The notes below the pieces were generated by a model. The model searched no databases, was not told the DNA's origin, and saw only the letters and a list, made by a program, of their open reading frames with translations. Positions 11,686-34,311 of a stretch of DNA of 64,000 bases are shown in pieces (the stretch's first letter is position 1; each line of letters begins with the position of its first letter). Source of the DNA: Candidatus Omnitrophota bacterium (GTDB taxonomy: Bacteria > Omnitrophota > Gorgyraeia > Gygaellales > Profunditerraquicolaceae); assembly GCA_028716245.1 (NCBI GenBank), contig JAQUQW010000002.1:357346-421345 (forward strand). The letters are read 5' to 3'. The position numbers and the translations under genes were made by a program.

Positions 11686-11690
11686 TTTAG

Positions 11691-11771
11691 TGCGGGAGGA
11701 GGGAGTTGAACCCTCAAGGGTTGCCCCACACGCTTCTGAGACGTGCGCGTCTGCCATTCCGCCACCCCCGC
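11691..11771 (-). tRNA. tRNA-Leu (anticodon CAG)
   Basis: Minus-strand cloverleaf: acceptor GCGGGGG/CTCCCGC, anticodon loop CTCAGAA, long variable arm, T-arm GGTTCAACTCC. Confidence 0.8.
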
Positions 11772-13350: not shown

Positions 13351-13754
13351 GGGGGTGAAAGGGTTCGACTTAAGATATGTCGGATAAGAGCAGCATGCCG
13401 CGGACGCATGGTTAGCCGCGTTAATAACCCGTGCACAATTCAAACGCAAACACGCAAGTGTCACGTTTAGGAACATTTGTTACGCCGTCATTGGCGAAAC
13501 CGATGTTCTTTAGTCCAGTCTGCTTTAACTAAGTTAAAGCAGCCTCTAACCATCCTCGCCTACGGGATGGATTAGGGCCTTAGTAGGATAGTTCCGGTGG
13601 TTGCCTTTGAAGCCGGAGCGAGATTTAAAAGGCTGCTCCTTGCAAATCCTGCCCTGTAGAAGTTGCAAGGTTAAGATAAATTACAAGGCTAAGCATGTAG
13701 CGGCTTTTGTTTGATTACTTAGGGACGGCGGTCCGATTCCGCCCACCTCCACCA
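13351..13754 (+). ncRNA. ssrA: transfer-messenger RNA (tmRNA, SsrA)
   Basis: 5' GGGGGTGAAAGGGTTCGAC pairs with the 3' acceptor; ends GGTCCGATTCCGCCCACCTCCACCA (T-arm plus CCA); PK1-like GCATGCCGCGGACGCATGG; 4 nt after smpB. Confidence 0.85.
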
Positions 13755-20345: not shown

Positions 20346-20420
20346 CGGGGCGTGGCTCAGCTTGGCTAGAGCGCCTGCTTTGGGAGCAGGAGGTCACAGG
20401 TTCAAGTCCTGTCGCCCCGA
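20346..20420 (+). tRNA. tRNA-Pro (anticodon TGG)
   Basis: Acceptor CGGGGCG/CGCCCCG, D-arm GCTCAGCTTGGCTAGAGC, anticodon loop TTTGGGA, T-arm ACAGGTTCAAGTCCTGT. Confidence 0.8.
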
Positions 20421-20434
20421 CTTTGAAAATTAAT

Positions 20435-20508
20435 GCGCCTGTAGCTCATATGGATAGAGCATCTGCCTTCTAAGCAGAATGTAGCAGGTCCGATCCCTGC
20501 CAGGCGCA
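20435..20508 (+). tRNA. tRNA-Arg (anticodon TCT)
   Basis: Acceptor GCGCCTG/CAGGCGC, anticodon loop CTTCTAA, T-arm GCAGGTCCGATCCCTGC. Confidence 0.8.
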
Positions 20509-20516
20509 TAAAACTT

Positions 20517-21750: not shown

Positions 21751-21828
21751 GGTGGGTATAGCTCAATTGGTCAGAGCGTTAGACTGTGGCTCTAAAGGTT
21801 GCGGGTTCGATCCCCGTTACCCACCCCA
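21751..21828 (+). tRNA. tRNA-His (anticodon GTG) with encoded G-1 and CCA
   Basis: G-1 plus acceptor GTGGGTA/TACCCAC, discriminator C, anticodon loop CTGTGGC, T-arm GCGGGTTCGATCCCCGT, CCA encoded. Confidence 0.8.
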
Positions 21829-23248
21829 ATTCTAAATGCGCGTTTTCCGCGTGAATTCTAAATGCGGAACTGTAAGAAACAATTAGGGTTTTGTTATACA
21901 GCTTAAGGTTCGATACAATTTTTTGCAAAAAATCCCGCTGGGCGTCGGGATTTGCCTCCGCTGCGATGTAACTGGCTTGGTGAGCAAGAGTTAGGAAGTT
22001 TTTGAAGTGTTCGAGCCAGTCCCCGTTACTGTCACCCTTTTCTGAAATATCGAACTTCCTGTTGATCAATTCGGCTTTCTTCTGCTTATACTCTTCGTCG
22101 GTGATTATACCTTTCAGCGACATATCTAAGAGCCGCTTTAACTGCTCGTCAACCTCTTGCGCTCTCACTTCACCACTAATCCGATTATGAACTTTCTCGG
22201 CTTGAAGGAGCGCCCGCTCTCGTTCTAATTCTTTTATCATCCAGGCGTAGGCGTTGTCATCAAGCGCAACTTTCTTAATGGCCTCTTTGACTTGTTGGGC
22301 GAGATTTTCCCCTCTAATAAAAACGGAGGATTGGGGGCAGGGGTCGCGTTTCTTTGAGCAGTGATAATAGTGATGCCCTTTTTGTCCTTCGGCTGTAATT
22401 TGGCAGCCACACTCCGCACACCTTATAAACCCACGAAATACAAAATAATGTTTTCTCTCGTAAGAAGGTCGGCTCCTGAACCTTAAAATCTCTTGCACCT
22501 TATCAAACAATTCTTTGTTTATTATAGGCGGGTGGCTGCCTTGGAAAATCTCGCCCTTATACACAAAGAGGCCAAGATAGAACTGATTCGTTAATATCCT
22601 GTGGACGTTACTGTACGAGAGCGGGCGCTTGGCTCTCTTGCTCACCAAGCCAGACGCAGTCGCCAATTTTCTTATCTCATCAACCGTATATCTTCCTTCA
22701 GCGCACAAGGCATACAATCTTTGAACCAGAGGGGAGGCGAGAGGGTCAATAGTTATTTTCCCTCTATCGTTTAAGTAGCCGATTGGCGCGAAGGCGGGGT
22801 ATTCGCCAAGCCTTACCTTCTCGCGCAAGCCGCGCTTTGTGTTCTCACTTAGATTATCAACGTAGTACTTACTTTGACCGAAAATAATATTGAGCATAAA
22901 CTTGCCTTGTGCGCTGTTGTCGAAGCGGTAAGTAGGGAAGCGAAGATCAATAATATCCCCGGTATCTACAAGGTAAATTATTTTACCGCCATCTATCGAA
23001 TTGCGCGCAAGTCTATCCGGATGCCAGGTAATGATACCGGACGCCTCGCCTTTCTCAATTCGTTTAATCATTTCGTTAAATATCGGGCGTCCGGGTGATT
23101 TCGCTGTTTTGGCTTCCTGAAACTCTTGTGTTATTACAAGATTTTCTTTCTTTGCGTATTCACGGACTTCGGTCAATTGCGACTGAATAGAGAGGACTTG
23201 TTTATCTTCCGTATCGGTAGACTTGCGCGCATACAGGAAATATTTCAT
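21779..23248 (-). CDS. large serine recombinase (resolvase/invertase catalytic domain, recombinase domain, zinc ribbon)
   Basis: N-terminal YARKSTD...Q motif with catalytic Ser, DRLARN motif, CxxC...HxxC zinc ribbon CAECGC...HHYYHC; C-terminal about 55 codons run through IR-L and antisense of tRNA-His. Confidence 0.8.
   Translation of the reverse strand: MKYFLYARKSTDTEDKQVLSIQSQLTEVREYAKKENLVITQEFQEAKTAKSPGRPIFNEMIKRIEKGEASGIITWHPDRLARNSIDGGKIIYLVDTGDIIDLRFPTYRFDNSAQGKFMLNIIFGQSKYYVDNLSENTKRGLREKVRLGEYPAFAPIGYLNDRGKITIDPLASPLVQRLYALCAEGRYTVDEIRKLATASGLVSKRAKRPLSYSNVHRILTNQFYLGLFVYKGEIFQGSHPPIINKELFDKVQEILRFRSRPSYERKHYFVFRGFIRCAECGCQITAEGQKGHHYYHCSKKRDPCPQSSVFIRGENLAQQVKEAIKKVALDDNAYAWMIKELERERALLQAEKVHNRISGEVRAQEVDEQLKRLLDMSLKGIITDEEYKQKKAELINRKFDISEKGDSNGDWLEHFKNFLTLAHQASYIAAEANPDAQRDFLQKIVSNLKLYNKTLIVSYSSAFRIHAENAHLELGWVTGIEPATFRATV
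21823..21956. repeat. 134-bp inverted repeat, left copy (IR-L); starts inside the tRNA-His 3' end (ACCCCA)
   Basis: Perfect reverse-complement match to 23379-23512, read by eye along the full length. Confidence 0.85.
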
Positions 23249-23378
23249 TTTTGTACCTCCTTAGAAAATTGGCGACTGCGTCTGCCAAGAATTGGCGGAA
23301 CTTACATCGCAGCGGGTCTGCTCAAAGAGCAGACAGTTATAAAATTTTGAGCCCTCGAAAGCTCAAAATTATATAACC

Positions 23379-23512
23379 GGCAAATCCCGACGCCCAGCGG
23401 GATTTTTTGCAAAAAATTGTATCGAACCTTAAGCTGTATAACAAAACCCTAATTGTTTCTTACAGTTCCGCATTTAGAATTCACGCGGAAAACGCGCATT
23501 TAGAATTGGGGT
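23379..23512. repeat. 134-bp inverted repeat, right copy (IR-R)
   Basis: Reverse complement of 21823-21956; outer end TGGGGT is the reverse complement of ACCCCA. Confidence 0.85.
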
Positions 23513-23970
23513 CCTTATATCCGATAGATCGAAAGTATTTTCGTCCCTGAGAAACCCCTAATCCGTTTTTTGTCTCTAATACCGGGGTAAAGCTGGTCTC
23601 TAATGAAACAGCTTAAATGCACCGCGCCCTGGGGGGGCGCTCCCACATTGAGCGGGCAATGGCGCTCGCTGGGCCGCTCGCTTCCAGCTAATTTTAATGC
23701 GTGTGCGGCGCAGCTGTGGCTTGCGCCGGGTGGGGGCGGCGCAAGCCACAGCGTCCTCACCCGACACGTTACTACAAGCTAAAAACAAAATTTTTTAAAG
23801 GTTCGTCCGCTATGCCGCAATTTACGAGTAAAAGCTGGCGGTGCGGCAAGCTGCGCCTCTCCCGATAAACACTTAAAGAAGTGCTGGCAAAAAGGCAAAT
23901 TTTGGTGCGGGCAAAATTTGCCTTTTTGCTCAAAGAACAAGCTAAAATTCAAATGATGCTAGGGGCGGAA
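23507..23970. repeat. about 460-bp inverted repeat, copy A, containing GC-rich hairpins
   Basis: Reverse-complement match to 33813-34276; identical spurious ORFs on both copies; internal hairpins GGCTTGCGCCG...CGGCGCAAGCC and GGCAAATTTTG...CAAAATTTGCC. Confidence 0.85.
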
Positions 23971-24052
23971 ATTGATTTGCAAAGAGCATTTTTAGTGATA
24001 AGATACAATTGAATTGGTTGTTATGAAGTATACTTAATATAGTAGTCTAATC

Positions 24053-24271
24053 GTGGTATATTGTCAAGATAAAATGTTAGAACAAAGACTAAGGCAGCTA
24101 AGAAAGAAAGCGGGTTGGTCTCAGCAGAAGTTAGCCGAGAAAGCCGGCTTATCTTATAATGTGATAACAAAAATCGAACAGGGCGTCGCGAAAAGACCGA
24201 CTATCCAGACGATGATTAAGTTAGCGGATGCTTTTAAAATTAGTATAGATGAATTGATAGGGAGAAATTAA
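24053..24271 (+). CDS. XRE-family HTH regulator (possible R-M controller C protein)
   Basis: 72 aa; HTH_3 motif QQKLAEKAGLSYNVITKIEQG; first gene of the cargo, upstream of MTase/REase genes. Confidence 0.65.
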   Translation: MVYCQDKMLEQRLRQLRKKAGWSQQKLAEKAGLSYNVITKIEQGVAKRPTIQTMIKLADAFKISIDELIGRN

Positions 24272-24272
24272 T

Positions 24273-24301
24273 TGACAGATATGCTTTTCTATGGTTATAA
24301 T
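24273..24301 (+). promoter_or_regulatory. near-consensus sigma70-type promoter (TTGACA-17-TATAAT)
   Basis: TTGACA at 24273-24278, TATAAT at 24296-24301, 17-nt spacer. Confidence 0.5.
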
Positions 24302-24365
24302 AATTCAACAATTAGGTTGCAAAGTGGTATGTTTGAAGGGGGAATCTGCCACGTTAAAATAAATC

Positions 24366-24400
24366 AAACCTTCGCCAAAAGAGGCGAAGGTTTTTTTATT
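24366..24400 (+). terminator. intrinsic terminator (stem AAACCTTCGCC/GGCGAAGGTTT plus T7)
   Basis: Perfect 11-bp stem, 6-nt loop, TTTTTTT tail; about 65 nt downstream of the promoter, 14 nt upstream of the MTase ATG. Confidence 0.55.
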
Positions 24401-24414
24401 TAAGAGAGTATTTT

Positions 24415-25530
24415 ATGTCAATAGCGACGTTATCTCCTGAAACTGACTGGAATTTTACGGATATTAGTTATTCGAAGAATATCTATTCTTTACATCCGTA
24501 TCCTGCTAAATTTATTCCCGATATTCCTAGGGAGCTTATTAAGCAATTAGGCGTTCCTTTGGGCACTGCAATTTTCGATCCTTTTTGTGGCAGTGGAACA
24601 ACTTTAATTGAAGCTCAGAGGAGTGGATTTTGTTCTATCGGAGTTGATTTAAATCCCATAGCCTGTTTAATAAGTAGGGTTAAAACTAGGGATTTACCGA
24701 AGGGATTTTTTGATGTTGCACTTGAAGTTTTTGAGAAAGCAAGGGATACCTATGATATTAAAACAGAAATTAATTTGCCTAATGTTGATCATTGGTTCAA
24801 AAAAGATGTACAAAATGCAATTAATGCAATTCTTAGGGAAATAAACGAAGTTAGAAATAAAATTATTCAGGAAACTTTGAAATTTATTCTTTCAAGTATA
24901 ATTGTTAAAGTGTCTAATCAGGAAAGTGATACTCGTTACGCTTCGATCGAGAAGAATACTTCAGCAGAGTTCGTGTTTCAATCTTTTATAGCAAATAGTC
25001 TTCGTTTTTCAAAAGTAATGGAAAAAGAGGAGACTAAGACGACATGGGCTACAGTTATTAACAAAGATATTTGTGATGTTGCGCCAACAGATTTATCTAT
25101 GCCCATAGGTTTAGTAATTACTTCGCCACCTTATCCCAATGCTTATGAGTATTGGCTTTATCATAAATATCGTATGTTGTGGCTTGGCTATGATCCAATT
25201 GGAGTAAAAAATCGGGAAATAGGCGCAAGGGCACATTTCTTTAAAAAGGACCCTCATACAGCATTTAATTTTAAGAGTGCTTTAAGCAAGACATTTGCTT
25301 TGCTTGAAGAAACAGTAATTTCAGGGGGGCATGTTTGTTTTGTTGTGGGTAGATCAAAAATACACGGGCAGATTATTAATAATGGTTTTATAGTAGAATG
25401 TGTAGCGAAAGATCACGGGTTCTTTTTTCTAGACAAAGTGAAGCGAAACATTGAATCTAGAAGGAAATCTTTTAATTTATCCTATGCAAAGATTAGAACA
25501 GAAGAGATCTTAGTTTTTAAAAGAAGGTAG
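24415..25530 (+). CDS. DNA amino-methyltransferase (N6-adenine or N4-cytosine)
   Basis: SAM motif I DPFCGSGTT and catalytic motif IV TSPPYPN. Confidence 0.8.
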   Translation: MSIATLSPETDWNFTDISYSKNIYSLHPYPAKFIPDIPRELIKQLGVPLGTAIFDPFCGSGTTLIEAQRSGFCSIGVDLNPIACLISRVKTRDLPKGFFDVALEVFEKARDTYDIKTEINLPNVDHWFKKDVQNAINAILREINEVRNKIIQETLKFILSSIIVKVSNQESDTRYASIEKNTSAEFVFQSFIANSLRFSKVMEKEETKTTWATVINKDICDVAPTDLSMPIGLVITSPPYPNAYEYWLYHKYRMLWLGYDPIGVKNREIGARAHFFKKDPHTAFNFKSALSKTFALLEETVISGGHVCFVVGRSKIHGQIINNGFIVECVAKDHGFFFLDKVKRNIESRRKSFNLSYAKIRTEEILVFKRR

Positions 25531-25535
25531 GTATT

Positions 25536-27044
25536 ATGGCGGCAGCTAATATTTATTGGCATGATTATAGATACTTCCCCTACGAAAGAGATATCGCTTA
25601 TAAGGAAGTAGTAGGGCTTTTAGACCCTCCAGAAATTAAAAACAAAAAAGACGGTTTTCAGTTATTAGGTAGATTTAATAATTCGGATATTTCGAAACTT
25701 GTTTACTTTTCGCACTATGAAATCAATAATCAGAAGCATCCTACCTTGCAGTATCTTTTTGAGAAAAAAAACAACGGAAACGGGAAAAAACGACAATCGA
25801 CACGGTACTCTTCACACGATTTACATGAATACAAGGGGAGGTTTAATCCACAAATAGTTCGTTCGATTCTGAACATACTGGGTATCGATAGAAAAGCAAA
25901 GATTCTTGATCCTTTTTGTGGTTGTGGTACGACATTAGTAGAGTGTGCCCATGTGGATATCTCTGCTGTAGGATGTGATATTAATCCATTGGCTATATTT
26001 ATAGCAAACGCAAAAGTTAAAGCGTTAGGTATTAGAACGAGAAAACTTAAAGAAGAAGGAGATGTTGTTTTCGATAAATTTTATTCCGATAGAAGAAGAA
26101 AAGTCGTGAGTAACATGGATGATAGGCTCAGATATTTGTCGCAGTGGTTTCCACCTGATGAACTGAATGATATTGAACTGCTTCGGAAAATTATTTTATC
26201 TCATAGCAGTGTAGGTAAAGAAATTCTGCTTTCTATCGTTAGTAATTTATTAAGAGATTATTCATTGCAAGAGCCAGCAGATTTGAGAATAAGAAGGAGA
26301 AAAAGTCCTTTTCCGGCTGTGGCTTTGATTGATGTTTTCCGAGAAGATTTATATTCTTTTTGTGCAAGTCTGGAGCAAGTGCAAGAAGCCATTGGAGTCA
26401 AAAGATCTAAGAATAAAGCCTACCATTGTGAAGCTCAAGAGATAGGAAAGAGGTTTCGGAGATGGGGCACAGGCTCATTTTTCGATGCAGTAATAACAAG
26501 TCCTCCTTATGCTACTGCATTGCCATATATTGATACGCAAAGATTAAGTTTGATATGGCTCGGTTTGTGTGATGTCAATGATTTGCGGAGATATGAGGCC
26601 AATCTGACAGGTAGCCGTGAATTTATGGGAGCCCAAAAGAAATCTTGTGCTTACGATTTTAATAATAATCTGGCTGATTTGCCTAAGACTCTCTATAGTT
26701 TTTTGTTGAAATTAGAAAATGCAGTCTCTGATGATGATGGATTCCGAAGAAGAGACTTACCTATTTTGCTGTATAGATATTTTTCAAATATGAAAAATAT
26801 TTTTTATTCAGTAGCAAAAGTGGTTAAACCCAAAGGGGCCTTTGTTCTAATTGTCGGACACAATAAAACCTATTTGGGAGGAATGAAATATGATATCAAT
26901 ACACCCGTCTTATTAAAAGAATTAGCACGGGAATCAGGATGGATTATCGATTTTTCCTATCCTTTGCAAACTTACCAACGATATAGTATCCATATGGAAA
27001 ATGCAGTGTCTTCTGAAGACATGATTTGCTTGAGGCGAAAATGA
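25536..27044 (+). CDS. second DNA amino-methyltransferase (N6-adenine or N4-cytosine)
   Basis: DPFCGCGTT and TSPPYATALPY motifs; paralogous to upstream MTase, as in type IIS systems with one MTase per strand. Confidence 0.8.
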   Translation: MAAANIYWHDYRYFPYERDIAYKEVVGLLDPPEIKNKKDGFQLLGRFNNSDISKLVYFSHYEINNQKHPTLQYLFEKKNNGNGKKRQSTRYSSHDLHEYKGRFNPQIVRSILNILGIDRKAKILDPFCGCGTTLVECAHVDISAVGCDINPLAIFIANAKVKALGIRTRKLKEEGDVVFDKFYSDRRRKVVSNMDDRLRYLSQWFPPDELNDIELLRKIILSHSSVGKEILLSIVSNLLRDYSLQEPADLRIRRRKSPFPAVALIDVFREDLYSFCASLEQVQEAIGVKRSKNKAYHCEAQEIGKRFRRWGTGSFFDAVITSPPYATALPYIDTQRLSLIWLGLCDVNDLRRYEANLTGSREFMGAQKKSCAYDFNNNLADLPKTLYSFLLKLENAVSDDDGFRRRDLPILLYRYFSNMKNIFYSVAKVVKPKGAFVLIVGHNKTYLGGMKYDINTPVLLKELARESGWIIDFSYPLQTYQRYSIHMENAVSSEDMICLRRK

Positions 27045-28135
27045 ACGAGTTTGCGTTACATCCTAATGTCTATGCTACTGGTGGACATCCCGGGTTAATT
27101 AGTATGTTAGAAAATATATGGGTGAGGGATCATACTCCTGGAGAGGGGGCGTTTTATCTCGTATCGGGGTTTGCAAATTACAATGGAGGTGTTAGGTTTT
27201 ATGATACTTTTAAGAATCATGTCGACCGCGGTGGTCACATTTATGCATATTTGGGAGGAAGCACTTCACAAAAGCTTACAAGTCAGCAAGTAGTAGAAGC
27301 TCTTTTAGAGTGTGGAGTAGAAGTAAACATAATTAATAGAAAGAGGATTTTGCATGCAAAGCTTTATGGACGAGTTAATTCTTTAGGAGAGCGTTTAGTT
27401 GTTACTTCTGGAAATTTTACTGGCCCTGGAATGTCTCAGAATGTAGAGGGGTCAATTATGTTAGATACCGATACAGTTTCTTCTATGGGGTTTTCATGGA
27501 GAAGTTTAATTGGAGAGATAAATAAGCAAAAATGGGAAATATACAAACCTACACTTCGTAATAGAAGAGCTCCGGCTTGGAATCTGTTGTTTGATGAAAT
27601 TTCGGGTGCGGTTGTTCTTGATGAAACCCAAGAAGTTACAATGGTAATAACTTTAGGCCATAATGATGTAGCGCGAATCCAGGCCTCTCCAGGGAGTAAA
27701 GCTGGGCTTGGGACTCAATATTTCTGGTTAAGTCGTGATTGCTTTGATTTCTTTCCAGCTTTAACAGTTAGAAATCAAAGAGGAGTTAAGACGACTTACT
27801 CAACTTTAATTAAGCTATATTATATAGATTTAAATATTCTAGATAAAAAAACCAGGGTGACTTTTGAAGCTGAGAATAACTTAGATTTTCGCCTTGGTAC
27901 AAGTAGGCTAAGATATACCAAACTAGCTGATGTGGGTGATCTCGCGATTATTTCTAGGGTTGGCGAAGATGAATACGAGTTACGTATAGCGAAGCAGGGT
28001 ACAGAAGAGTATAGAAAATTGTCCCCTTATGCCATTAATTTTATTGGTCATCGCGGTAAAAGATTTGGTTATTTGTCTAATCAAGAGTTTGGCAAATTGC
28101 TGAATTTACACCTTCCTACGAGTTCTTTTGATTAG
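27041..28135 (+). CDS. PLD/Nuc-superfamily nuclease, candidate restriction endonuclease (BfiI-like)
   Basis: Single HxK...N...GSxN-type motif ILHAKLYGRVNSLGERLVVTSGNFTG; ATGA overlap with MTase2; about 365 aa like BfiI. Confidence 0.5.
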   Translation: MNEFALHPNVYATGGHPGLISMLENIWVRDHTPGEGAFYLVSGFANYNGGVRFYDTFKNHVDRGGHIYAYLGGSTSQKLTSQQVVEALLECGVEVNIINRKRILHAKLYGRVNSLGERLVVTSGNFTGPGMSQNVEGSIMLDTDTVSSMGFSWRSLIGEINKQKWEIYKPTLRNRRAPAWNLLFDEISGAVVLDETQEVTMVITLGHNDVARIQASPGSKAGLGTQYFWLSRDCFDFFPALTVRNQRGVKTTYSTLIKLYYIDLNILDKKTRVTFEAENNLDFRLGTSRLRYTKLADVGDLAIISRVGEDEYELRIAKQGTEEYRKLSPYAINFIGHRGKRFGYLSNQEFGKLLNLHLPTSSFD

Positions 28136-28206
28136 TCTTGTAGATCCTTCGCGTTTTACTCCGAATAATCAGATAAGTATAGTTATTATAATTCAATAGA
28201 TTAGGG

Positions 28207-30144
28207 GTGGAAAACATGAAAATTTCCAAAATCGAGATAAAAAATTTTCGATCATTACACGATGTTACTATTTATCCGAATAACATTTTAACTTTAGTAG
28301 GGCGAAATAATAGCGGTAAATCTAATATAACTAAAGCGTTGGCACTTTTCTTTGATCCCTCTACTAAGGGTATGGATTCCGAATGTTTTTATAATCATAA
28401 GACTGATAAGCCGATACAGATTACTTTAACTTTTGAGAAATTGAGTGGTTGGGAGAGTGAACAGTTTAAGGCATGGATGGATGGGGAAAAACTGATTGTA
28501 GGAAGAGAGATTGTTTGTAAATCGGAAGATGAGTTTGAAGTTAAAACCTTGGCTTTTACAAAAGTACCTGAACCTGAATGGTTACAAGATGATTTAATTA
28601 CTGGAGAAAAGATAGCTGAGTGGTGGAGTAAAAAAGCAGAGTTGAAGATAAAAGGAATTGATTTTTCTTCGGAACTTGGTTCTGCAAAGCCGAGCGTTAC
28701 GAAGTGGAAAGAAGTGGCGAAAAAATTCCTAGATGTAAATAAAGATAAAATTCCTTGGAAGGATGAAAGACGGGAGAATCCAAAGGGGTATCCCGGTGTA
28801 TTGAAAGGGGCCTTACCGGAATTTGTTTATGTGCCCGCTATTAGGGATGTGTCAGATGAGGCTAAGGTTTCCCAGACTAGTCCTTTTGGTAAACTTATAA
28901 ATTCCGTGCTTGAAAAGATTGCTGATAAGGAAAAAGAGGCGATTGCTGGACAGCTAAAGGAGATTGAAAATAAGCTTAATCGTACGGGAGGGAAAGACCG
29001 AGTGGCTGAGGTTAAAGCGATTGAAGATCAGCTTAACAGGCTTATAAGAGAGATTATGGAGTGTGATATTGAAATTGAAATGGGGGTTCCCCAGCTTAAA
29101 GAAATCTTTGGGGGTGTTAAAATATATGCGAATGATGGAGTAAGGACAATTATTGATACAAAAGGACATGGTCTCCAGCGGTCGATGATTTTCACAATAC
29201 TTCGGGCTTACGCTGAACTTTCGCATACGCAAAAGGCAGTTGAGAAAGCAGGGGAAAGGACAACTATATTTGCGATAGAAGAACCGGAATTATATCTGCA
29301 TCCACAGTCGCAAAGAACTTTTATGAATGTTTTTAGGAATATAGCCAAAGGAAAAGATCAGGTTATTTATAGTACTCATTCAAGTCTTTTTGTTGATATT
29401 ACCTGGTTTGATGAAATATGTATAGTCAGAAGAGATAAAGAAGGGGATGAATATAAGAGTAAAGTTACGCAATTGTCTATGAAGGATATGCTTGGAGATT
29501 TGAAAGCTCGTAAAGGTATAGATGGGAATGAAGTGGGTATAAGAGAACAGTATTCAAACGCTTTTAACCCCTTGATTAATGAGGGGTTCTTTGCAAGTAA
29601 AGTAGTTATTGTCGAAGGTCCATCTGAACAATATTTATTTCCTATATATTCCGAAGCGATGGGGTACAATCTTGATCAAAATAATGTGTCAGTAGTGCAT
29701 TCTGATGGCAAAGGTTCAATGGATAGATTGTTACGCGTTTTTAACGGTTTCAAAATTCCTACCTACCTTTGGTTTGATGGTGATAAAGATAACGCGGATT
29801 CGGAGGTAAAGAAAAAAACACTAGAGCTTCTTGAATTGTTAGGTAATAAGAAAAGCAAGATCGAGGAAGTTGGCACGGAAATTTCTGATTGCTATGCAGT
29901 GCTTGAATATAAATTGGAAAAAATCTTAAAAGAAGAAATCAAGGATTATGATGTCATAATTAGTGAAGCAGCTAAAATTCTGGGACCTGTTGGCAAGCCT
30001 TTAGAGCAAAGATACTTAGCTGTCCAAATAAAAAAGAAAATAGATAATAAGGCGAAGCCTGAAGATGTCATACCTAAAACTATCATAGAAATCATTGGGA
30101 AGATAAAAAACTTGAAATTTAATTGTAGTGTATTACGTAAATAG
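28207..30144 (+). CDS. OLD-family ATP-dependent endonuclease (ABC-type ATPase plus C-terminal Toprim)
   Basis: Walker A GRNNSGKSN; signature/Walker-B region IFAIEEPELYLHPQSQR; Toprim-like VVIVEGPSEQ ... WFDGDKDN. Confidence 0.75.
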   Translation: MENMKISKIEIKNFRSLHDVTIYPNNILTLVGRNNSGKSNITKALALFFDPSTKGMDSECFYNHKTDKPIQITLTFEKLSGWESEQFKAWMDGEKLIVGREIVCKSEDEFEVKTLAFTKVPEPEWLQDDLITGEKIAEWWSKKAELKIKGIDFSSELGSAKPSVTKWKEVAKKFLDVNKDKIPWKDERRENPKGYPGVLKGALPEFVYVPAIRDVSDEAKVSQTSPFGKLINSVLEKIADKEKEAIAGQLKEIENKLNRTGGKDRVAEVKAIEDQLNRLIREIMECDIEIEMGVPQLKEIFGGVKIYANDGVRTIIDTKGHGLQRSMIFTILRAYAELSHTQKAVEKAGERTTIFAIEEPELYLHPQSQRTFMNVFRNIAKGKDQVIYSTHSSLFVDITWFDEICIVRRDKEGDEYKSKVTQLSMKDMLGDLKARKGIDGNEVGIREQYSNAFNPLINEGFFASKVVIVEGPSEQYLFPIYSEAMGYNLDQNNVSVVHSDGKGSMDRLLRVFNGFKIPTYLWFDGDKDNADSEVKKKTLELLELLGNKKSKIEEVGTEISDCYAVLEYKLEKILKEEIKDYDVIISEAAKILGPVGKPLEQRYLAVQIKKKIDNKAKPEDVIPKTIIEIIGKIKNLKFNCSVLRK

Positions 30145-30223
30145 TATACATAGTTATCGTAAGGTATCATTCTTAGGGATACTCATTGATTTGTTTTAGA
30201 TGCCATAGCTATTTTAATTAAAT

Positions 30224-31348
30224 ATGCGAATAATCCATTTTTCCGATACACATTTAGGATTCTCGGATTTTACAAAAGTTGATCCAGAAACCGGAATCAA
30301 CTTAAGGGAAGCTGATGTTTATGATGCTTTCTCTCAAGTAATTAACTATATCATTAGTAATCCTCCAGATATTGTAATTCATGCAGGTGATCTTTTTGAT
30401 ACCTACAGACCGCCTAATCGTGCAATAAACTTCGCTTTAAAAGAAATAGCAAGAGTATCTCAAAAACAAATACCAGTTATAATGATTTCTGGCAATCATT
30501 CAACTCCTCGAATTAGGATTTCTGGGTCAATCTTTGAGGCGTTTGAGATTTTGGAGAACGTTTACCCTGTTTATCAATCAAAATACCAGGAGATTATTAT
30601 TAAAGATGTCGCGGTCCACTGCGTCCCTCATATGGGAACAGAGGAAGAATTGAATAGAGCATTTGACGAAATTAGAATCAATACAAAGGTAAAGTATAAT
30701 GTAATCGTTGCTCATCTTGGGATTACTGCTGAAGTACAATATAAAATGGGGGAGTTTAATGAGTTAATAATTCCTCAAGGTGCTTTAAAAAAGAAGAGTG
30801 AACTCGATTATATAGCTCTCGGACACTATCACAGAAATCTGGTTCTTGCTGAAAACTGCTGTTATTCTGGGTCTACGGAACGTTTTAGTTTTAATGAAGC
30901 CGGTCAGCCAAAAGGTTTTATGGAAGTTGATTTAGCTGCAAAAAAGAGGATGTTTATACCGATAAAAGTAAGAGAGATGATAGCATTTGATCCAATTGAT
31001 TGTAAAGACCAAAGCTCCGCAAAAATTGTTGAAGAAATTGAGCAATTAATTAAAGATAGGACGCAAGGCAATATCCTTCAGATTACTTTTGCCAATATAA
31101 GAAGGCAACAATATTTAGAGATGAATTTCTCAAAAATTAAAGAAATTGTCAGTGATGCAGTACATCTAAAAATTATCTGTAACTGGATGACTGAAAAGGG
31201 AAGTGAAGTCACTAAAACTTCTATAGGTGCACTTTCATCAGAGTTTGAAAGCTTTATCGCTCACCAAGATATTAAAGATTTGGATAAGAAAAAATTGAAA
31301 GAATTAGGAGTGGGGTATTTATCACAAGCACAAGAAGAGGAAGAGTAA
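30224..31348 (+). CDS. SbcD/Mre11-like calcineurin-type phosphoesterase nuclease
   Basis: Metallophosphatase motifs HFSDTHLG, HAGDLFD, SGNHS, VAHLG, LGHYH. Confidence 0.75.
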   Translation: MRIIHFSDTHLGFSDFTKVDPETGINLREADVYDAFSQVINYIISNPPDIVIHAGDLFDTYRPPNRAINFALKEIARVSQKQIPVIMISGNHSTPRIRISGSIFEAFEILENVYPVYQSKYQEIIIKDVAVHCVPHMGTEEELNRAFDEIRINTKVKYNVIVAHLGITAEVQYKMGEFNELIIPQGALKKKSELDYIALGHYHRNLVLAENCCYSGSTERFSFNEAGQPKGFMEVDLAAKKRMFIPIKVREMIAFDPIDCKDQSSAKIVEEIEQLIKDRTQGNILQITFANIRRQQYLEMNFSKIKEIVSDAVHLKIICNWMTEKGSEVTKTSIGALSSEFESFIAHQDIKDLDKKKLKELGVGYLSQAQEEEE

Positions 31349-33754
31349 ATGTTTTTAAGAAGTCTTAAGCTTAGAAATTATAGAAAGTTTAGAGATGAGC
31401 CAATTGAATTTCCTGAAGGGATAATTGGTATAATTGGGCCTAACGGCGCAGGAAAATCCTCCATATTAGAGGCAATAGGTTGGGCATTATATGGTAATCA
31501 ATTGACGCGATCTGACAAATCGGAAGTAAAAAGTCAAAATGCAGCTTTAGAAGAAGACTGTGAAGTGGAACTGATATTCGATTTAGGAGGTCATTCTTAC
31601 AAAGTTCTTAGACAATTAAAGGGGAGAAACTCAATTTCTAATGCATTAGCGTTTATAGATGGGAATATTGAGCCAGTTGCTGAAAGGGATAGTGGAGTAA
31701 ACCAATATATAGAATTATTGCTAGGTATGGATTACGTTACATTTTTAAGGACCATTTATGCAAAGCAAAAAGATTTAGCTGCGCTTTCTTCCTTGGCTCC
31801 TGAAGCAAGGAAAAAGGTTATCAGGAGAATGTTGAATATCGATCGTATTGATTCAGCAGTAACTCAAATTAGGGTAGACACAAGAGATAAACAAAGATTT
31901 GTTGAAGGTATCCAATCCAGCCTTGAAAATATTGAAGAGTTGGAAGTAGATAAAAAGGAATTAGAGGGGCAGCAGAGTTCAATAAATAAAAATATTGGTG
32001 TTTTCACTACCGAGCTTAATATTATTAAAGACGAAAGGCAAAAACTAAGAAAAGAAAAGGAAGATCAAGAAGCGAAATATAAAACTTATAATCAATTTTC
32101 CAGCGATGTATCTCGCTTATCAACTCAAATAACCTCTTTAAAAAGGAAACTAAGTGATTCAGAAAAAGACCTTGAAGAGCTAAAGAAAAATAAGGAAACA
32201 TTAGATAAGCTTGAGCCGAAAGAAAAAGAATATCTAAAAGTTAAGGAAGATAAGTCAGCGCAGGAAACATTAAGGCTTAAATTTCAAGAGAAATTGGCAT
32301 TTGAGAAAAACTGGAAAGAAATGAAAGAAGAAATAGATGGTCGCGAAAAAGAATTAAAGGCTGCGATAGAGCAGCTTAAACTATTTTCTAGTATACAGAA
32401 AGATTCTGATTCTACAGAGAAAGCACTAAGAGATAAAGAAGTTAGTAGAAGGAAGCTTGAGAAAGAAGTAAAGGACGCTGAAGGGAAAGTGAGTGTTTAT
32501 TCATCCCAATTAGAAGAATTGATTCACAAGAAGAAGAGCATAAGCCAATTGGGCGGTAGTGGCAAATGTCCTACTTGCTTCCGTGAATTAGGGGAAGATG
32601 GCAAAGACATTTTGCTTCATTTAGATAATGAAATAAGTAAAGTGAAAGAGAAACTAATACCTTCTCATGAAAATAGAGATAAGGTAAGTGAGCAATTAGA
32701 AGATGTTATGGCAGAACAAGAGAAATTGGTAGAGCAAAAGAATAAATTAAATGAAAAATTGAAGAAAAAATCCAAGATAGAGCAGTCAATAGAAGAGCAA
32801 GATAACGAGGTAAAGAAATTGAGTTTTAAAATTACAAGAACAGAAGAAAAGATTTCCGGAATGAAAGATATAAAATTTGATCGGGGATTTTACGCGGAAT
32901 TATTAAGAAAGTTTGATACGTTATCGGAAACAAGAGATTCAATTCTTGAATTAAGAAAAGAGATTCAAAGAATTCCTAAAATTGTTGAAGCAATAGATAG
33001 CACAAGAAAAGAGATCAATGATTTGGAAAATACGCTTGAGAATAAAGAAGAAGATTTAAAGAAGCTTGAGTTTAATGAGAAAAGGTTTGAGAAAATAAAA
33101 GCAAACTATGAGGAACTAAGTGATAAATTATTGACAGGTCAGAATAAATTAGATGAAGCCAAAGGTAAAACAGAAGTTTTAAAACAAAGAATTTCTAATA
33201 TTAAAGAAAGAATGGCCCGCCGAAAAGAAAACCAAAAGAGAATTGAAGCCGCAAGTTTAGAACTTCAATATTTGCAGCGTCTTGAATTGCTTTTAGATAA
33301 ATTCAGGCTTGAATTAACAGGAAGGATACGCCCTTTATTAGAAGCGAGAACATCCTTTCTTTTTAGCGAAATTACGGATGGGCGTTATCCTTCTGTCGAA
33401 CTTGATGAAGACTATGAATTATCAATTTTGGACGGAGATAAATATTTCAAGTTAAAAAGATTTTCAGGTGGAGAAGAGGATCTCGCTAATTTATGTTTGA
33501 GAATTGCAATGTCACAAGTAATCGCAGAGAGAAGTGGTGGAGTAGAGATAAATTTTATAGCATTAGACGAAATATTTGGTAGCCAAGATGAAGACAGGCG
33601 ACAAAATATAATGAATTCTTTCAATAAACTATCTTCTCAATTTCGGCAAATATTCCTTATCTCCCATATTGAGGAAATTCGGGAGATGCTGAATAGAGTT
33701 TTACGAGTAGAGGAAAATGGAACGAGGAAAGAAAGTAAAGTTTCGTTAGTTTGA
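31349..33754 (+). CDS. SbcC/Rad50-like SMC ATPase with CxxC zinc hook
   Basis: Walker A GPNGAGKSS; long coiled coil; central CPTC hook; C-terminal signature FSGGEEDLANL and Walker B/D-loop IALDEIFGSQDEDR; start 1 nt after SbcD stop. Confidence 0.75.
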   Translation: MFLRSLKLRNYRKFRDEPIEFPEGIIGIIGPNGAGKSSILEAIGWALYGNQLTRSDKSEVKSQNAALEEDCEVELIFDLGGHSYKVLRQLKGRNSISNALAFIDGNIEPVAERDSGVNQYIELLLGMDYVTFLRTIYAKQKDLAALSSLAPEARKKVIRRMLNIDRIDSAVTQIRVDTRDKQRFVEGIQSSLENIEELEVDKKELEGQQSSINKNIGVFTTELNIIKDERQKLRKEKEDQEAKYKTYNQFSSDVSRLSTQITSLKRKLSDSEKDLEELKKNKETLDKLEPKEKEYLKVKEDKSAQETLRLKFQEKLAFEKNWKEMKEEIDGREKELKAAIEQLKLFSSIQKDSDSTEKALRDKEVSRRKLEKEVKDAEGKVSVYSSQLEELIHKKKSISQLGGSGKCPTCFRELGEDGKDILLHLDNEISKVKEKLIPSHENRDKVSEQLEDVMAEQEKLVEQKNKLNEKLKKKSKIEQSIEEQDNEVKKLSFKITRTEEKISGMKDIKFDRGFYAELLRKFDTLSETRDSILELRKEIQRIPKIVEAIDSTRKEINDLENTLENKEEDLKKLEFNEKRFEKIKANYEELSDKLLTGQNKLDEAKGKTEVLKQRISNIKERMARRKENQKRIEAASLELQYLQRLELLLDKFRLELTGRIRPLLEARTSFLFSEITDGRYPSVELDEDYELSILDGDKYFKLKRFSGGEEDLANLCLRIAMSQVIAERSGGVEINFIALDEIFGSQDEDRRQNIMNSFNKLSSQFRQIFLISHIEEIREMLNRVLRVEENGTRKESKVSLV

Positions 33755-33812
33755 AGTTTATTGATTTTTTTTAAGCAATCTGTGATAAAATATAGCAATC
33801 GCATTAGATTAT

Positions 33813-34276
33813 TCCGCCCCCTAGCATCATTTGAATTTTAGCTTGTTCTTTGAGCAAAAAGGCAAATTTTGCCCGCACCAAAATTTGCCTTTTTGCCAGC
33901 ACTTCTTTAAGTGTTTATCGGGAGAGGCGCAGCTTGCCGCACCGCCAGCTTTTACTCGTAAATTGCGGCATAGCGGACGAACCTTTAAAAAATTTTGTTT
34001 TTAGCTTGTAGTAACGTGTCGGGTGAGGACGCTGTGGCTTGCGCCGCCCCCACCCGGCGCAAGCCACAGCTGCGCCGCACACGCATTAAAATTAGCTGGA
34101 AGCGAGCGGCCCAGCGAGCGCCATTGCCCGCTCAATGTGGGAGCGCCCCCCCAGGGCGCGGTGCATTTAAGCTGTTTCATTAGAGACCAGCTTTACCCCG
34201 GTATTAGAGACAAAAAACGGATTAGGGGTTTCTCAGGGACGAAAATACTTTCGATCTATCGGATATAAGGACCCCA
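33813..34276. repeat. about 460-bp inverted repeat, copy B; outer end ACCCCA
   Basis: Reverse complement of copy A, possibly with a 1-nt run-length difference at the inner end; ends GGACCCCA at 34269-34276. Confidence 0.85.
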
Positions 34277-34311
34277 TTTTATTTCTAACAAAACAGTAAA
34301 GGATAAATATC

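Follow-up and report, generated by a model that had tools for sequence, protein, structure and literature searches.

Long inverted repeats of a defence island in Candidatus Omnitrophota as probable attachment-site arms of a large serine recombinase at a tRNA-His 3' end

The DNA analysed here (the window) is a stretch of 64,000 nucleotides from contig JAQUQW010000002.1 of a Candidatus Omnitrophota bacterium, in which a set of defence genes is bracketed by a pair of inverted repeats (IRs) of about 460 nt. These repeats are probably the two cargo-side (P) attachment (att) arms of a 12.4-kb defence island whose insertion into a tRNA-His gene, at its 3' end, was carried out by a large serine recombinase (LSR). 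The attP region of about 600 bp would be present twice in the island, in opposite orientation. One copy would have been split by integration, leaving arm a (21829–21956) at attL and arm B' (33813–34276) at attR; the other, consisting of a' and B (23379–23970), would have stayed intact between the recombinase promoter and the helix-turn-helix (HTH) and cargo genes. An attP that is duplicated in inverted orientation, with one of its copies split, would account for the presence of two back-to-back IR pairs, one of 134 nt round the recombinase gene and one of 460 nt round the cargo. The left 460-nt copy is then not an end of the element, the start of which lies 1.7 kb to the left, where the tRNA-His gene ends (21828/21829). 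From the three junctions described below and the change in base composition, we infer that the island extends from 21829 to 34276 (12,448 bp).

An automated repeat search returned the arms of the 460-nt pair as 23504–23972 and 33811–34279 (469 nt, 99% complementary, spaced by 9838 nt). An earlier note on this DNA, made from the letters alone, had described two reverse-complement copies of about 460 bp differing by at most 1 nt in a run of G. Base-by-base alignment bore this out: the sequence from 23507 (TGGGGTCC...) through 23970 is the reverse complement of 34276–33813, with the sole exception of a G-run that reads GGGG at 23962–23965 in the left copy and GGGGG in the right one. Outside both copies the sequences diverge immediately at either end, and the inner boundary is fuzzy, a 1-nt indel being followed by five further matching bases. 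A repeat of this length cannot be a product of chance. Both of the strong local hairpins that had been noticed in each copy were found as described, in the left arm at 23718–23747 (GGCTTGCGCCG / GGTGGGGG / CGGCGCAAGCC) and at 23894–23922 (GGCAAATTTTG / GTGCGG / GCAAAATTTGCC); the latter, with an A-run and a T-run on either side, has the shape of a bidirectional intrinsic terminator. The arms are indeed richer in G+C (51%) than the cargo (35%) and the flanks (43–44%). The earlier supposition that the repeats are non-coding agrees with the comparison of homologous arms from 26 other loci, in which the longest open frames vary in strand, frame and length; since, moreover, 1-nt indels occur within conserved blocks, the arm interior is non-coding. 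A profile search of the window with the arm interior detected two copies only, and elsewhere the unit was found only at elements of the same recombinase family. In these searches, the unit did not behave as a repeat scattered independently of the island.

The 460-nt pair is not isolated, being abutted by a second, perfect IR pair of 134 nt. This pair, detected in a repeat scan of the whole window, comprises 21823–21956 and 23379–23512 and flanks the recombinase gene. Six bases, TGGGGT, are common to the right 134-nt arm and the left 460-nt arm, since the former extends to 23512 and the latter starts from 23507. At the other side of the recombinase gene, the end of the tRNA-His gene (...CCCACCCCA) coincides exactly with the start of the left 134-nt arm. 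If the tRNA is termed T, the 134-nt arms a and a', the recombinase segment R, the 460-nt arms B and B', the cargo C and the right flank Y, the order of the locus is T/a R a'/B C B'/Y, where slashes mark three junctions. Junction J1 (T/a) reads ...CCCACCCCA/ATTCTAAATG, J2, on the other strand (B'/a), reads ...AAGGACCCCA/ATTCTAAATG, and J3 (B'/Y) reads ...AAGGACCCCA/TTTTATTTC. The core ACCCCA is common to J1, J2 (where it is inverted) and J3. On the basis of these sequences, we read J1 as attL, J2 as an intact, inverted attP within the element, and J3 as attR. The cores of the putative attL and attR are in direct orientation and that of the internal attP is inverted; the core in the window contains no palindromic dinucleotide. 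The features of the island are compiled in Table 1.

Table 1. Features of the putative integrative element and its target in the window
Feature	Position	Strand	Evidence and remarks
tRNA-His (GTG)	21752..21828	+	ARAGORN, Rfam; final bases ...CCCACCCCA as B-type left half of the putative integration site; J1 at 21828/21829
Arm a, putative recombinase-side (P') att arm	21829..21956		Perfect pairing with 23379–23506; 134-nt 100% IR including the 6-nt core
Large serine recombinase gene, 489 aa	21779..23248	-	Pfam; open reading frame crosses the crossover point
Unique 130-nt region upstream of the recombinase start	23249..23378		14-nt IR remnant (23304–23317) and 61-nt insert with two hairpins
Arm a', inverted copy of arm a	23379..23506		Contiguous with the left 460-nt arm, giving the putative intact inverted attP (J2)
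Crossover core TGGGGT (reverse complement ACCCCA)	23507..23512		6-nt arm overlap; same core at 21823–21828 and 34271–34276
Left 460-nt arm B	23507..23970	+	Putative P-type half-site 23507–~23545 (TGGGGTCCTTATATCCGATAGATCGAAAG...); folded core ~23560–23880; terminator hairpin 23889–23927
XRE-type HTH gene	24053..24271	+	Pfam HTH_3 3.6e-18; first gene inside the recombinase-proximal arm
Defence cargo	24415..33754	+	Pfam, PADLOC; G+C 0.35 vs 0.44 in flanks
Right 460-nt arm B'	33813..34276	-	Outer end ...AAGGACCCCA at 34276, putative right end of the element (J3/attR)
Whole integrative element	21829..34276		a – recombinase – a' / B – HTH – cargo – B'

The gene between the 134-nt arms codes for a protein with the Pfam domains Resolvase (1.9e-22), Recombinase (1.2e-15) and Zn_ribbon_recom (5.6e-09) and with the N-terminal catalytic-serine motif YARKST, by which its membership in the LSR family is established. 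The earlier note had reported no transposase; this holds in that none occurs in or near the element, but the LSR gene, 260 nt to the left of the left copy, had been overlooked. Its proposals of att-site arms or ends of a mobile element came close to what we consider probable, except that the left copy would be internal, as part of an intact inverted attP. Nothing in the data speaks for the recombination enhancers that it also listed. The minus strand of arm a encodes the last ~45 codons of the recombinase, including the conserved C-terminal stretch ...RDFLQKIVSNLKLYNKTL..., and the translation ...RDFLQKIVSNLKLYNKTLIVSY... passes through the arm. Since arm a is coding and the reading frame runs over the crossover point, a' represents an inverted copy of the 3' end of the recombinase gene. 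As integrated into the tRNA gene, the tail of the protein reads ...HLELG-WVTGIEPATFRATV before the stop codon; continued into arm B (attP configuration; 23507–23551), it would read ...HLELG-SLYPIDRKYFRP before the stop. Because the sequence of the tail depends on the DNA beyond the core, integration is predicted to alter the last ~15 residues of the enzyme.

Just inside arm a, a 14-nt sequence (CCGCTGCGATGTAA, 21958–21971) occurs that recurs in inverted orientation at 23304–23317, 61 nt inside arm a'. Apparently, the recombinase-flanking IR was formerly longer and is now interrupted by a 61-nt insert with two hairpins (23318–23378). In relatives, the median distance separating the arm from the start codon is 92 nt, as compared to the 130-nt region of the window. 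Both 134-nt arms contain the promoter-like sequence TTGTTA-17-TACAAT, pointing inward (21891–21919, plus strand, and 23416–23444, minus strand); such promoters would transcribe the recombinase gene in sense direction from a' and in antisense direction from a, and the motif is not conserved in the arms of distant relatives. A general role of the upstream arm as source of the recombinase promoter was rejected, as inward and outward promoter-like scores were equal in 38 loci (means of 6.16 and 6.21). Searches of viral contigs yielded only three relatives of the recombinase, all of them distant (28–41% identity), and thus the family is not typical of catalogued viruses. Neither a blastn search of plasmids and phages with the 594-bp attP region nor a search of viral contigs for an exact 28-mer of the arm tip produced a match.

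The assignment of the arm tip to an attP-type half-site is based on its spacing relative to the tRNA. The outer ~35 nt of B' hold a motif resembling a tRNA T-loop (TTTCGATC in the window, as compared to GGTTCGATCC in tRNA-His; GTTCGAA, GTTCGGA or GTTCTAA in the arms of relatives), whose distance to the core is larger in the arm than in the tRNA: 21 vs 17 nt in the window, 22 vs 17 nt in the related loci L039 and L075, and 20 vs 15 nt in L034. When matches between the tRNA half and the arm-B half were summed over 14 elements (the window and 13 loci), they peaked at offsets of +4 (122) and +5 (126), as opposed to a mean of 83 at the other 15 offsets. A published rule for LSR sites is that attP carries the motif for the second DNA-binding domain (DBD2) 5 bp farther from the centre than attB does, the shift being 4 bp for SPbeta (PMC11722253). 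Since the observed shift of +4/+5 agrees with this rule, the arm tip has the geometry of an attP-type half-site.

The very end of the arm follows the target. The tip GGGG is the complement of the acceptor end of tRNA-His, and in relatives located at other tRNAs the corresponding bases are ...CCAC, ...CAGC or ...CACCA. This also bears on the idea that the repeats are the terminal IRs of a DDE-type transposon, Tn3-like, or of a miniature inverted-repeat transposable element (MITE) or other foldback element, which captured defence genes. The tips (GGGGTC...) are loosely reminiscent of the Tn3 family and the IRs do bracket the cargo, but a tip GGGGT that mirrors the tRNA acceptor end and varies with the tRNA in relatives does not match such an origin; there is, furthermore, no transposase in or near the element, the flanking sequences GAATT and ATTTT reveal no target duplication, and the unit is not dispersed. 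We therefore regard a transposon as hardly credible. The MITE-like foldback structure listed as an option in the earlier note fails for the same reasons, related arms having been found only at the ends of elements of this recombinase family.

A search of genome contigs with the recombinase sequence retrieved 80 loci, mostly from Candidatus Omnitrophota (up to 94% identity), Patescibacteria/candidate phyla radiation (CPR), Margulisiibacteriota, Saganbacteria and Peregrinibacteria. Self-comparison identified a recombinase-flanking IR pair in about 50 of the 80 loci, with arms of 55–195 nt (321 nt in one case) that are mostly 95–100% identical. Wherever the upstream DNA suffices, i.e., in about 18 loci, a second IR pair starts at the end of the first and brackets a variable region of 1–8 kb, as exemplified by L015 (413 nt, 100%, 8.4 kb), L019 (337 nt, 3.8 kb) and L034 (409 nt, 3.0 kb); it is also present in L051, L063–L065, L069, L070 and L075. 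The complete layout with three junctions and two IR pairs was recognised in at least 14 further loci from Omnitrophota, Patescibacteria, Peregrinibacteria and other lineages, the recombinases of which are 39–63% identical and the cargo of which is unrelated. In the 12 loci that could be mapped cleanly, the core common to the three junctions comprises 3–6 nt (13 nt in L070) and is situated at the 3' extremity of a tRNA; the target tRNAs checked are those for His in L013, Ala in L015 and L019, and Gln in L022. Relatives from Alphaproteobacteria (38–39% identity) showed no such repeats, and the layout is thus a trait of one recombinase clade. The right flank Y and the cargo of the window had no match in any of the recombinase-relative loci fetched. 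Across loci, arm identity is 88–100% and usually similar for both pairs of one element. The stretch of contig left upstream of the recombinase start is shorter than 900 nt in 41 of the 80 loci, as is expected because repeats disrupt assembly.

An assembly artefact, namely a chimeric or inverted join at a repeat, was also considered. The arms in the window are perfect, and the 134-nt arm is near common k-mer sizes. However, the same layout was produced by different assemblers in different studies (SPAdes NODE_, MEGAHIT k141_, JGI and RBG scaffolds), well inside long contigs, the arms of several loci are only 88–97% identical, which is impossible for an artefact, and the inner boundary of the 460-nt arms in the window is fuzzy, as described above. 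We consider an artefact highly improbable.

The relatives also document how the element varies. In L010, the tRNA is located upstream of the recombinase gene on the same strand, and in both L010 and L006 the 3' end of the recombinase gene runs directly into B. Comparison with the remaining loci indicates that the clade has undergone at least one inversion of the recombinase segment in the course of its history. The two orientations among genomes could be taken as a sign of a programmed inversion switch, in which the recombinase (attL x attP, attP x attR) or RecA flips the cargo and/or the recombinase segment for phase variation or in a flip-flop like that of the 2-micron plasmid. Long, near-perfect arms would suit a switch, exchange between J1 and J2 or J2 and J3 would regenerate identical sites, and assemblies often break at the repeats. 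Nevertheless, the orientation of the cargo relative to the recombinase module is the same in all 11 loci in which it could be assessed, whereas free flipping predicts about half, and the recombinase segment has the orientation of the window in a large majority of loci. For LSRs, attB is the only known partner of attP, and attR the only one of attL, the latter pair requiring a directionality factor (PMC11722253). Flipping of the whole cargo would alter no obvious connection between promoter and gene, and the length of the repeats alone accounts for the contig breaks. Taken together, a programmed switch appears unlikely.

Other loci include decayed derivatives. L100 (5398–5483) lacks the recombinase; its tRNA-His is succeeded by two inverted 18-nt arms round a 25-nt loop and then directly by a B arm and cargo, and to judge from this arrangement the recombinase segment was lost by deletion between the repeats flanking it. 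In L003, the upstream arm is missing. In L086 (3386–3995), and likewise in L092, a fragment of a recombinase pseudogene and the start of a B core lie beyond the distal arm of the current element; these apparent remains of an older element in L086 suggest repeated arrivals at one site. In L004 (2150–2190), the element abuts a fragment resembling a tRNA 3' half (GGTTCGAGTCCCGTCAGGGACCCCA) with tRNA-type spacing, which is not called as tRNA by ARAGORN; the real tRNA-His gene is located 3.9 kb away, beyond glycosyltransferase-like genes.

If the 460-nt repeats are cargo-side arms of a duplicated attP, the recombinase would exchange strands inside ACCCCA. Recombination of attL with attR would release a circle consisting of a recombinase segment (1.4 kb) and a cargo segment (9.8 kb) with two inverted repeats of about 600 bp, each containing an attP, between them. 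The empty site expected would be tRNA-His...ACCCCA followed by TTTTATTTCTAAC, i.e., ...GTTACCCACCCCA/TTTTATTTCTAACAAAAC. Since the core at J2 is inverted and contains no palindromic dinucleotide, neither segment should be excisable alone, only invertible; and owing to the identity of the inner arms, all three sites would persist unaltered whenever J2 recombined with either J1 or J3. A scheme of two modules that insert independently via palindromic attP sites of their own was discarded, because the polarity of J2 and the non-palindromic core exclude conservative insertion or excision of a single module. The near-identity of the arms might be maintained by gene conversion or by occasional recombination between arms, with decay in old insertions, and terminators would insulate the cargo. 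Conserved arms would also provide portable homology for swapping unrelated cargo between elements. Unrelated cargo, together with the mosaic arms of L013, which are made up of blocks of 100%, 91% and 86% identity, suggests that they do serve in such exchange.

Several observations weigh against this interpretation. Neither an empty tRNA-His site nor an excised circle was recovered, look-ups of the exact protein sequences of the recombinase and of two flanking genes having returned no record, so that mobility and the exact ends of the island are putative. The geometry of the right-hand halves (a compared with Y) gave a weak maximum at +4 (109 vs ~90) and no clear offset signal. The arm pairs of L013 are discordant (100% and 88% identity), indicating that homogenisation is not uniform. 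No protein directionality factor was recognised in the element, the XRE-type HTH protein not having been compared with known ones. Finally, the HTH gene is always found at the intact copy (11 of 11 loci), although two equivalent attP copies predict splitting of either one; either the choice of the copy is biased, or excision followed by reintegration is rare.

The interior of the arm (about 23560–23880 in the window) is conserved between elements in Omnitrophota. It is 89% identical in L002, 83% in L004, and 75% over 424 nt in L025, the recombinase of which is only 69% identical in protein; conservation is weaker but clear in the group at tRNA-Ala (L015, L021). This identity of 75–89% is kept between elements without detectable DNA similarity of the cargo. 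Scanning of metagenomes with a conserved 33-mer of the arm core added 31 loci, in most of which the arm either neighbours a recombinase gene or is no more than a few hundred bases away from the end of its contig; where two full copies of the arm occur on one contig (L089), they are inverted, and the partial pairs in L086 and L092 likewise. Folding, which the earlier note had proposed for the 460-nt unit, showed that a single copy from the window folds better than shuffled sequences on both strands (z = -4.0 and -7.3). In an alignment of 27 distinct arm copies, 95% of the cells form a standard pair, compared to 42–54% when the partners are slid; changes on both sides were counted for 20 pairs (8–13 slid) and 109 cells (15–28 slid), and none of 500 shuffles attained the observed covariation values. 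According to this structural model, the arm interior in Omnitrophota is a conserved, non-coding, folded element of ~320–400 nt with covarying stems and a terminator. Each arm contains up to three hairpins with the near-identical G-rich loop GGTG(C/G)GGG(C) (23729–23736 and 23905–23910 in the window), the stems of which differ and covary, being GC-rich in some copies and AT-rich in others; in the model, the repeated hairpin looks like a recognition hairpin for some factor. Counts of G-U versus A-C favour whichever strand was used for prediction, and 27 pairs are common to both folds; the predicted stems could function at the level of RNA or of DNA. The arms are covered by no Rfam family at either threshold applied, only tRNAs and the tmRNA reaching the gathering score in the window; the best match over 23300–24100 was to microRNA hairpin models (E = 0.14). 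Arms from CPR and other non-Omnitrophota genomes mostly measure 83–197 nt (409 nt in L034, ~318 nt in L071), and none of them matched the profile of the folded core. Since these arms occur in the same double-IR layout, the layout does not depend on the folded core.

One might suppose that a structured RNA, acting together with the recombinase, e.g., as regulator or directionality factor, is what the arms chiefly encode, as two copies of its gene, their role as att half-sites being secondary. Besides the covarying stems, the stability of the fold and the terminator at its end, the conservation of the arm interior, which about equals that of the recombinase gene, would be in line with such a function, as would its position in the attP configuration (L006, L010), where it immediately follows the 3' end of the recombinase gene, and the failure to find a protein directionality factor within the limits given above. 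On the other hand, the folded core is confined to Omnitrophota, the same double-IR layout occurring elsewhere with mostly shorter arms; each strand's predicted fold has G-U-dependent helices of its own in addition to the 27 common pairs; complementarity between core and att flanks is at chance level; no Rfam family matches; and the stems could equally act in DNA. An RNA gene as the primary identity of the arms thus seems very unlikely. A guide function comparable to that of "bridge" or seek RNAs was rejected as well: in a limited test of five elements, 8-mer matches between arm interior and att flanks numbered 0–1 per element, as compared to 0.8–1.3 expected.

No protein directionality factor was found within the limits given above, the arms reach far past the ~25 bp per side needed by the enzyme, and they are near-identical across a clade that has diverged to ~40% recombinase identity. 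The duplicated inverted attP and the folded element might then be functional parts of an undescribed way of running a serine-integrase element, which we think is rather doubtful. In one version of this idea, the folded element may be an RNA that controls the recombinase, e.g., by replacing a protein directionality factor. Alternatively, by analogy to the 2-micron plasmid, the back-to-back repeats may permit site-preserving inversions, or, as in CTX-phi, they may enable a single strand to refold on itself and so restore attP.

With respect to the genes bracketed by the 460-nt arms, the 72-aa XRE-type HTH protein has homologues in 17 loci (38–71% identity, tblastn). In all 15 loci with a mapped arm, its gene is the first inside the arm and reads away from it (e.g., L002, 8783–8968; L013, 9173–9370; L015, 9118–9309; L019, 9141–9338; L006, 2009–2200), and wherever the recombinase side is visible (11 of 11 loci), this arm is the recombinase-proximal intact copy. 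Because the position of the HTH gene is conserved in elements with unrelated cargo, it belongs to the backbone rather than to the cargo. The gene scores against the PADLOC models for HTH, capH and control proteins; considering its location, it could code for a regulator or directionality factor of the element rather than for the controller protein of a restriction system. On this evidence, the conserved backbone comprises the recombinase gene, a', the core, B and the HTH gene. The layout amounts to that of a usual integrase element in which the HTH and integrase genes diverge, except that the region between these two genes has received the attP region of the element in a second, inverted copy.

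The cargo includes genes for two type II methyltransferases (PADLOC MTase_II, 1.7e-132 and 2.3e-144), a BfiI-like restriction enzyme composed of a PLD nuclease and a BfiI DNA-binding domain (REase_II, 7.6e-167), and an OLD-family ATPase/TOPRIM nuclease (PADLOC Old, 2.4e-77). The last two genes (30224–33754) encode a metallophosphoesterase and an 801-aa SbcC/SMC-like ATPase, resembling SbcCD. This pair showed weak scores against the LmuB and PbeC defence models, the phosphoesterase being without a PADLOC match, and may constitute an uncatalogued defence pair. The neighbourhood of the island in the window, with tmRNA, tRNA-Pro, tRNA-Arg, a DUF748 gene and tRNA-His (13351–13754, 20346–20509, 11690–11771), is syntenic with the Omnitrophota metagenome-assembled contigs L001, L002 and L005, which agrees with the Omnitrophota origin of the window.

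Serine integrases are prized for requiring no more than two short sites and for their unidirectional action. Against this background, a whole LSR clade from Omnitrophota, CPR/Patescibacteria and neighbouring uncultivated lineages appears to travel with a second, inverted attP. If the duplication is functional, it would imply an unknown layer of control, a built-in device for cargo exchange, or a new route to the inversion or refolding of att sites. In practical terms, the frequent contig ends a short way upstream of the recombinase gene are accounted for by the repeats. In these genomes, the layout also shows how the limits of a defence island next to a tRNA gene can be drawn, one limit being the 3' end of the tRNA and the other the outer tip of the distal repeat. 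The loci would furthermore provide natural attP/attB pairs (tRNA 3' ends) for a new integrase clade, and a candidate structured non-coding element is gained that has covariation support and no Rfam family.

Among known systems, the island shares with LSR elements and prophages (of the phiC31, Bxb1, A118, SPbeta, SCCmec and Tn4451 types) the enzyme family, the short core, an attP at or overlapping the integrase gene, a half-site motif located 4–5 bp farther out in attP, and attL and attR without long direct repeats. Unlike these, it apparently holds a second complete, inverted attP with 75–460 nt of identical flank per side between the recombinase promoter and the cargo, and its recombinase gene and cargo are each bracketed by long IRs. 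It differs further in that the target is the extreme 3' end of a tRNA, in that no directionality factor is recognisable, and in the folded non-coding module of the Omnitrophota elements. Tycheposons likewise are small site-specific tRNA islands with variable adaptive or defence cargo, a minority of them with large serine recombinases; most have tyrosine recombinases and leave partial tRNA direct repeats, and no internal inverted attP or cargo-bracketing IR is described for them as far as the text of the source was searched (10.1101/2020.12.28.424599).

Serine invertase switches and invertons (Hin/hix, Gin/gix, hsdS shufflons) resemble the island in the bracketing of a segment by IRs, the use of a serine recombinase, and the presence of restriction-modification genes inside. 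They are run by small enzymes at sites of ~26–30 bp plus an enhancer and flip a promoter or part of a gene, whereas the island has a 489-aa LSR, arms of 134 and 460 nt, whole sets of genes between them, and a near-fixed orientation; identity with an invertase switch was rejected for the wrong enzyme class and the wrong arm size.

The yeast 2-micron plasmid carries two IRs of 599 bp, each with an FRT site, that divide the circle into two unique segments inverted by Flp. It is the nearest architectural analogue, as the putative excised circle of the island would likewise contain two IRs of ~600 bp, each with a recombinase site, and one segment encoding the recombinase. In contrast to the plasmid, the island uses a serine rather than a tyrosine enzyme and is integrated; inversion by its recombinase is hypothetical, the orientations among genomes are unequal, and no origin or replication gene was found with Pfam and PADLOC. 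In CTX-phi, attP arises when two inverted dif-like sites fold in single-stranded DNA to form a substrate for XerCD. The island resembles it in having inverted att copies within one element, and a single strand of it could fold so that a:a' and B:B' stack into a duplex attP; unlike in CTX-phi, loops of 1.4 and 9.8 kb lie between the arms, and the enzyme makes double-strand breaks. A full-text search of the literature retrieved no description of the double-IR layout with an inverted attP, which, given the incomplete coverage of that search, is absence of evidence rather than proof of novelty. By its enzyme and the logic of its sites, the island is best filed as an LSR integrative element that is new in its putative inverted second attP and in its two back-to-back pairs of long IRs.

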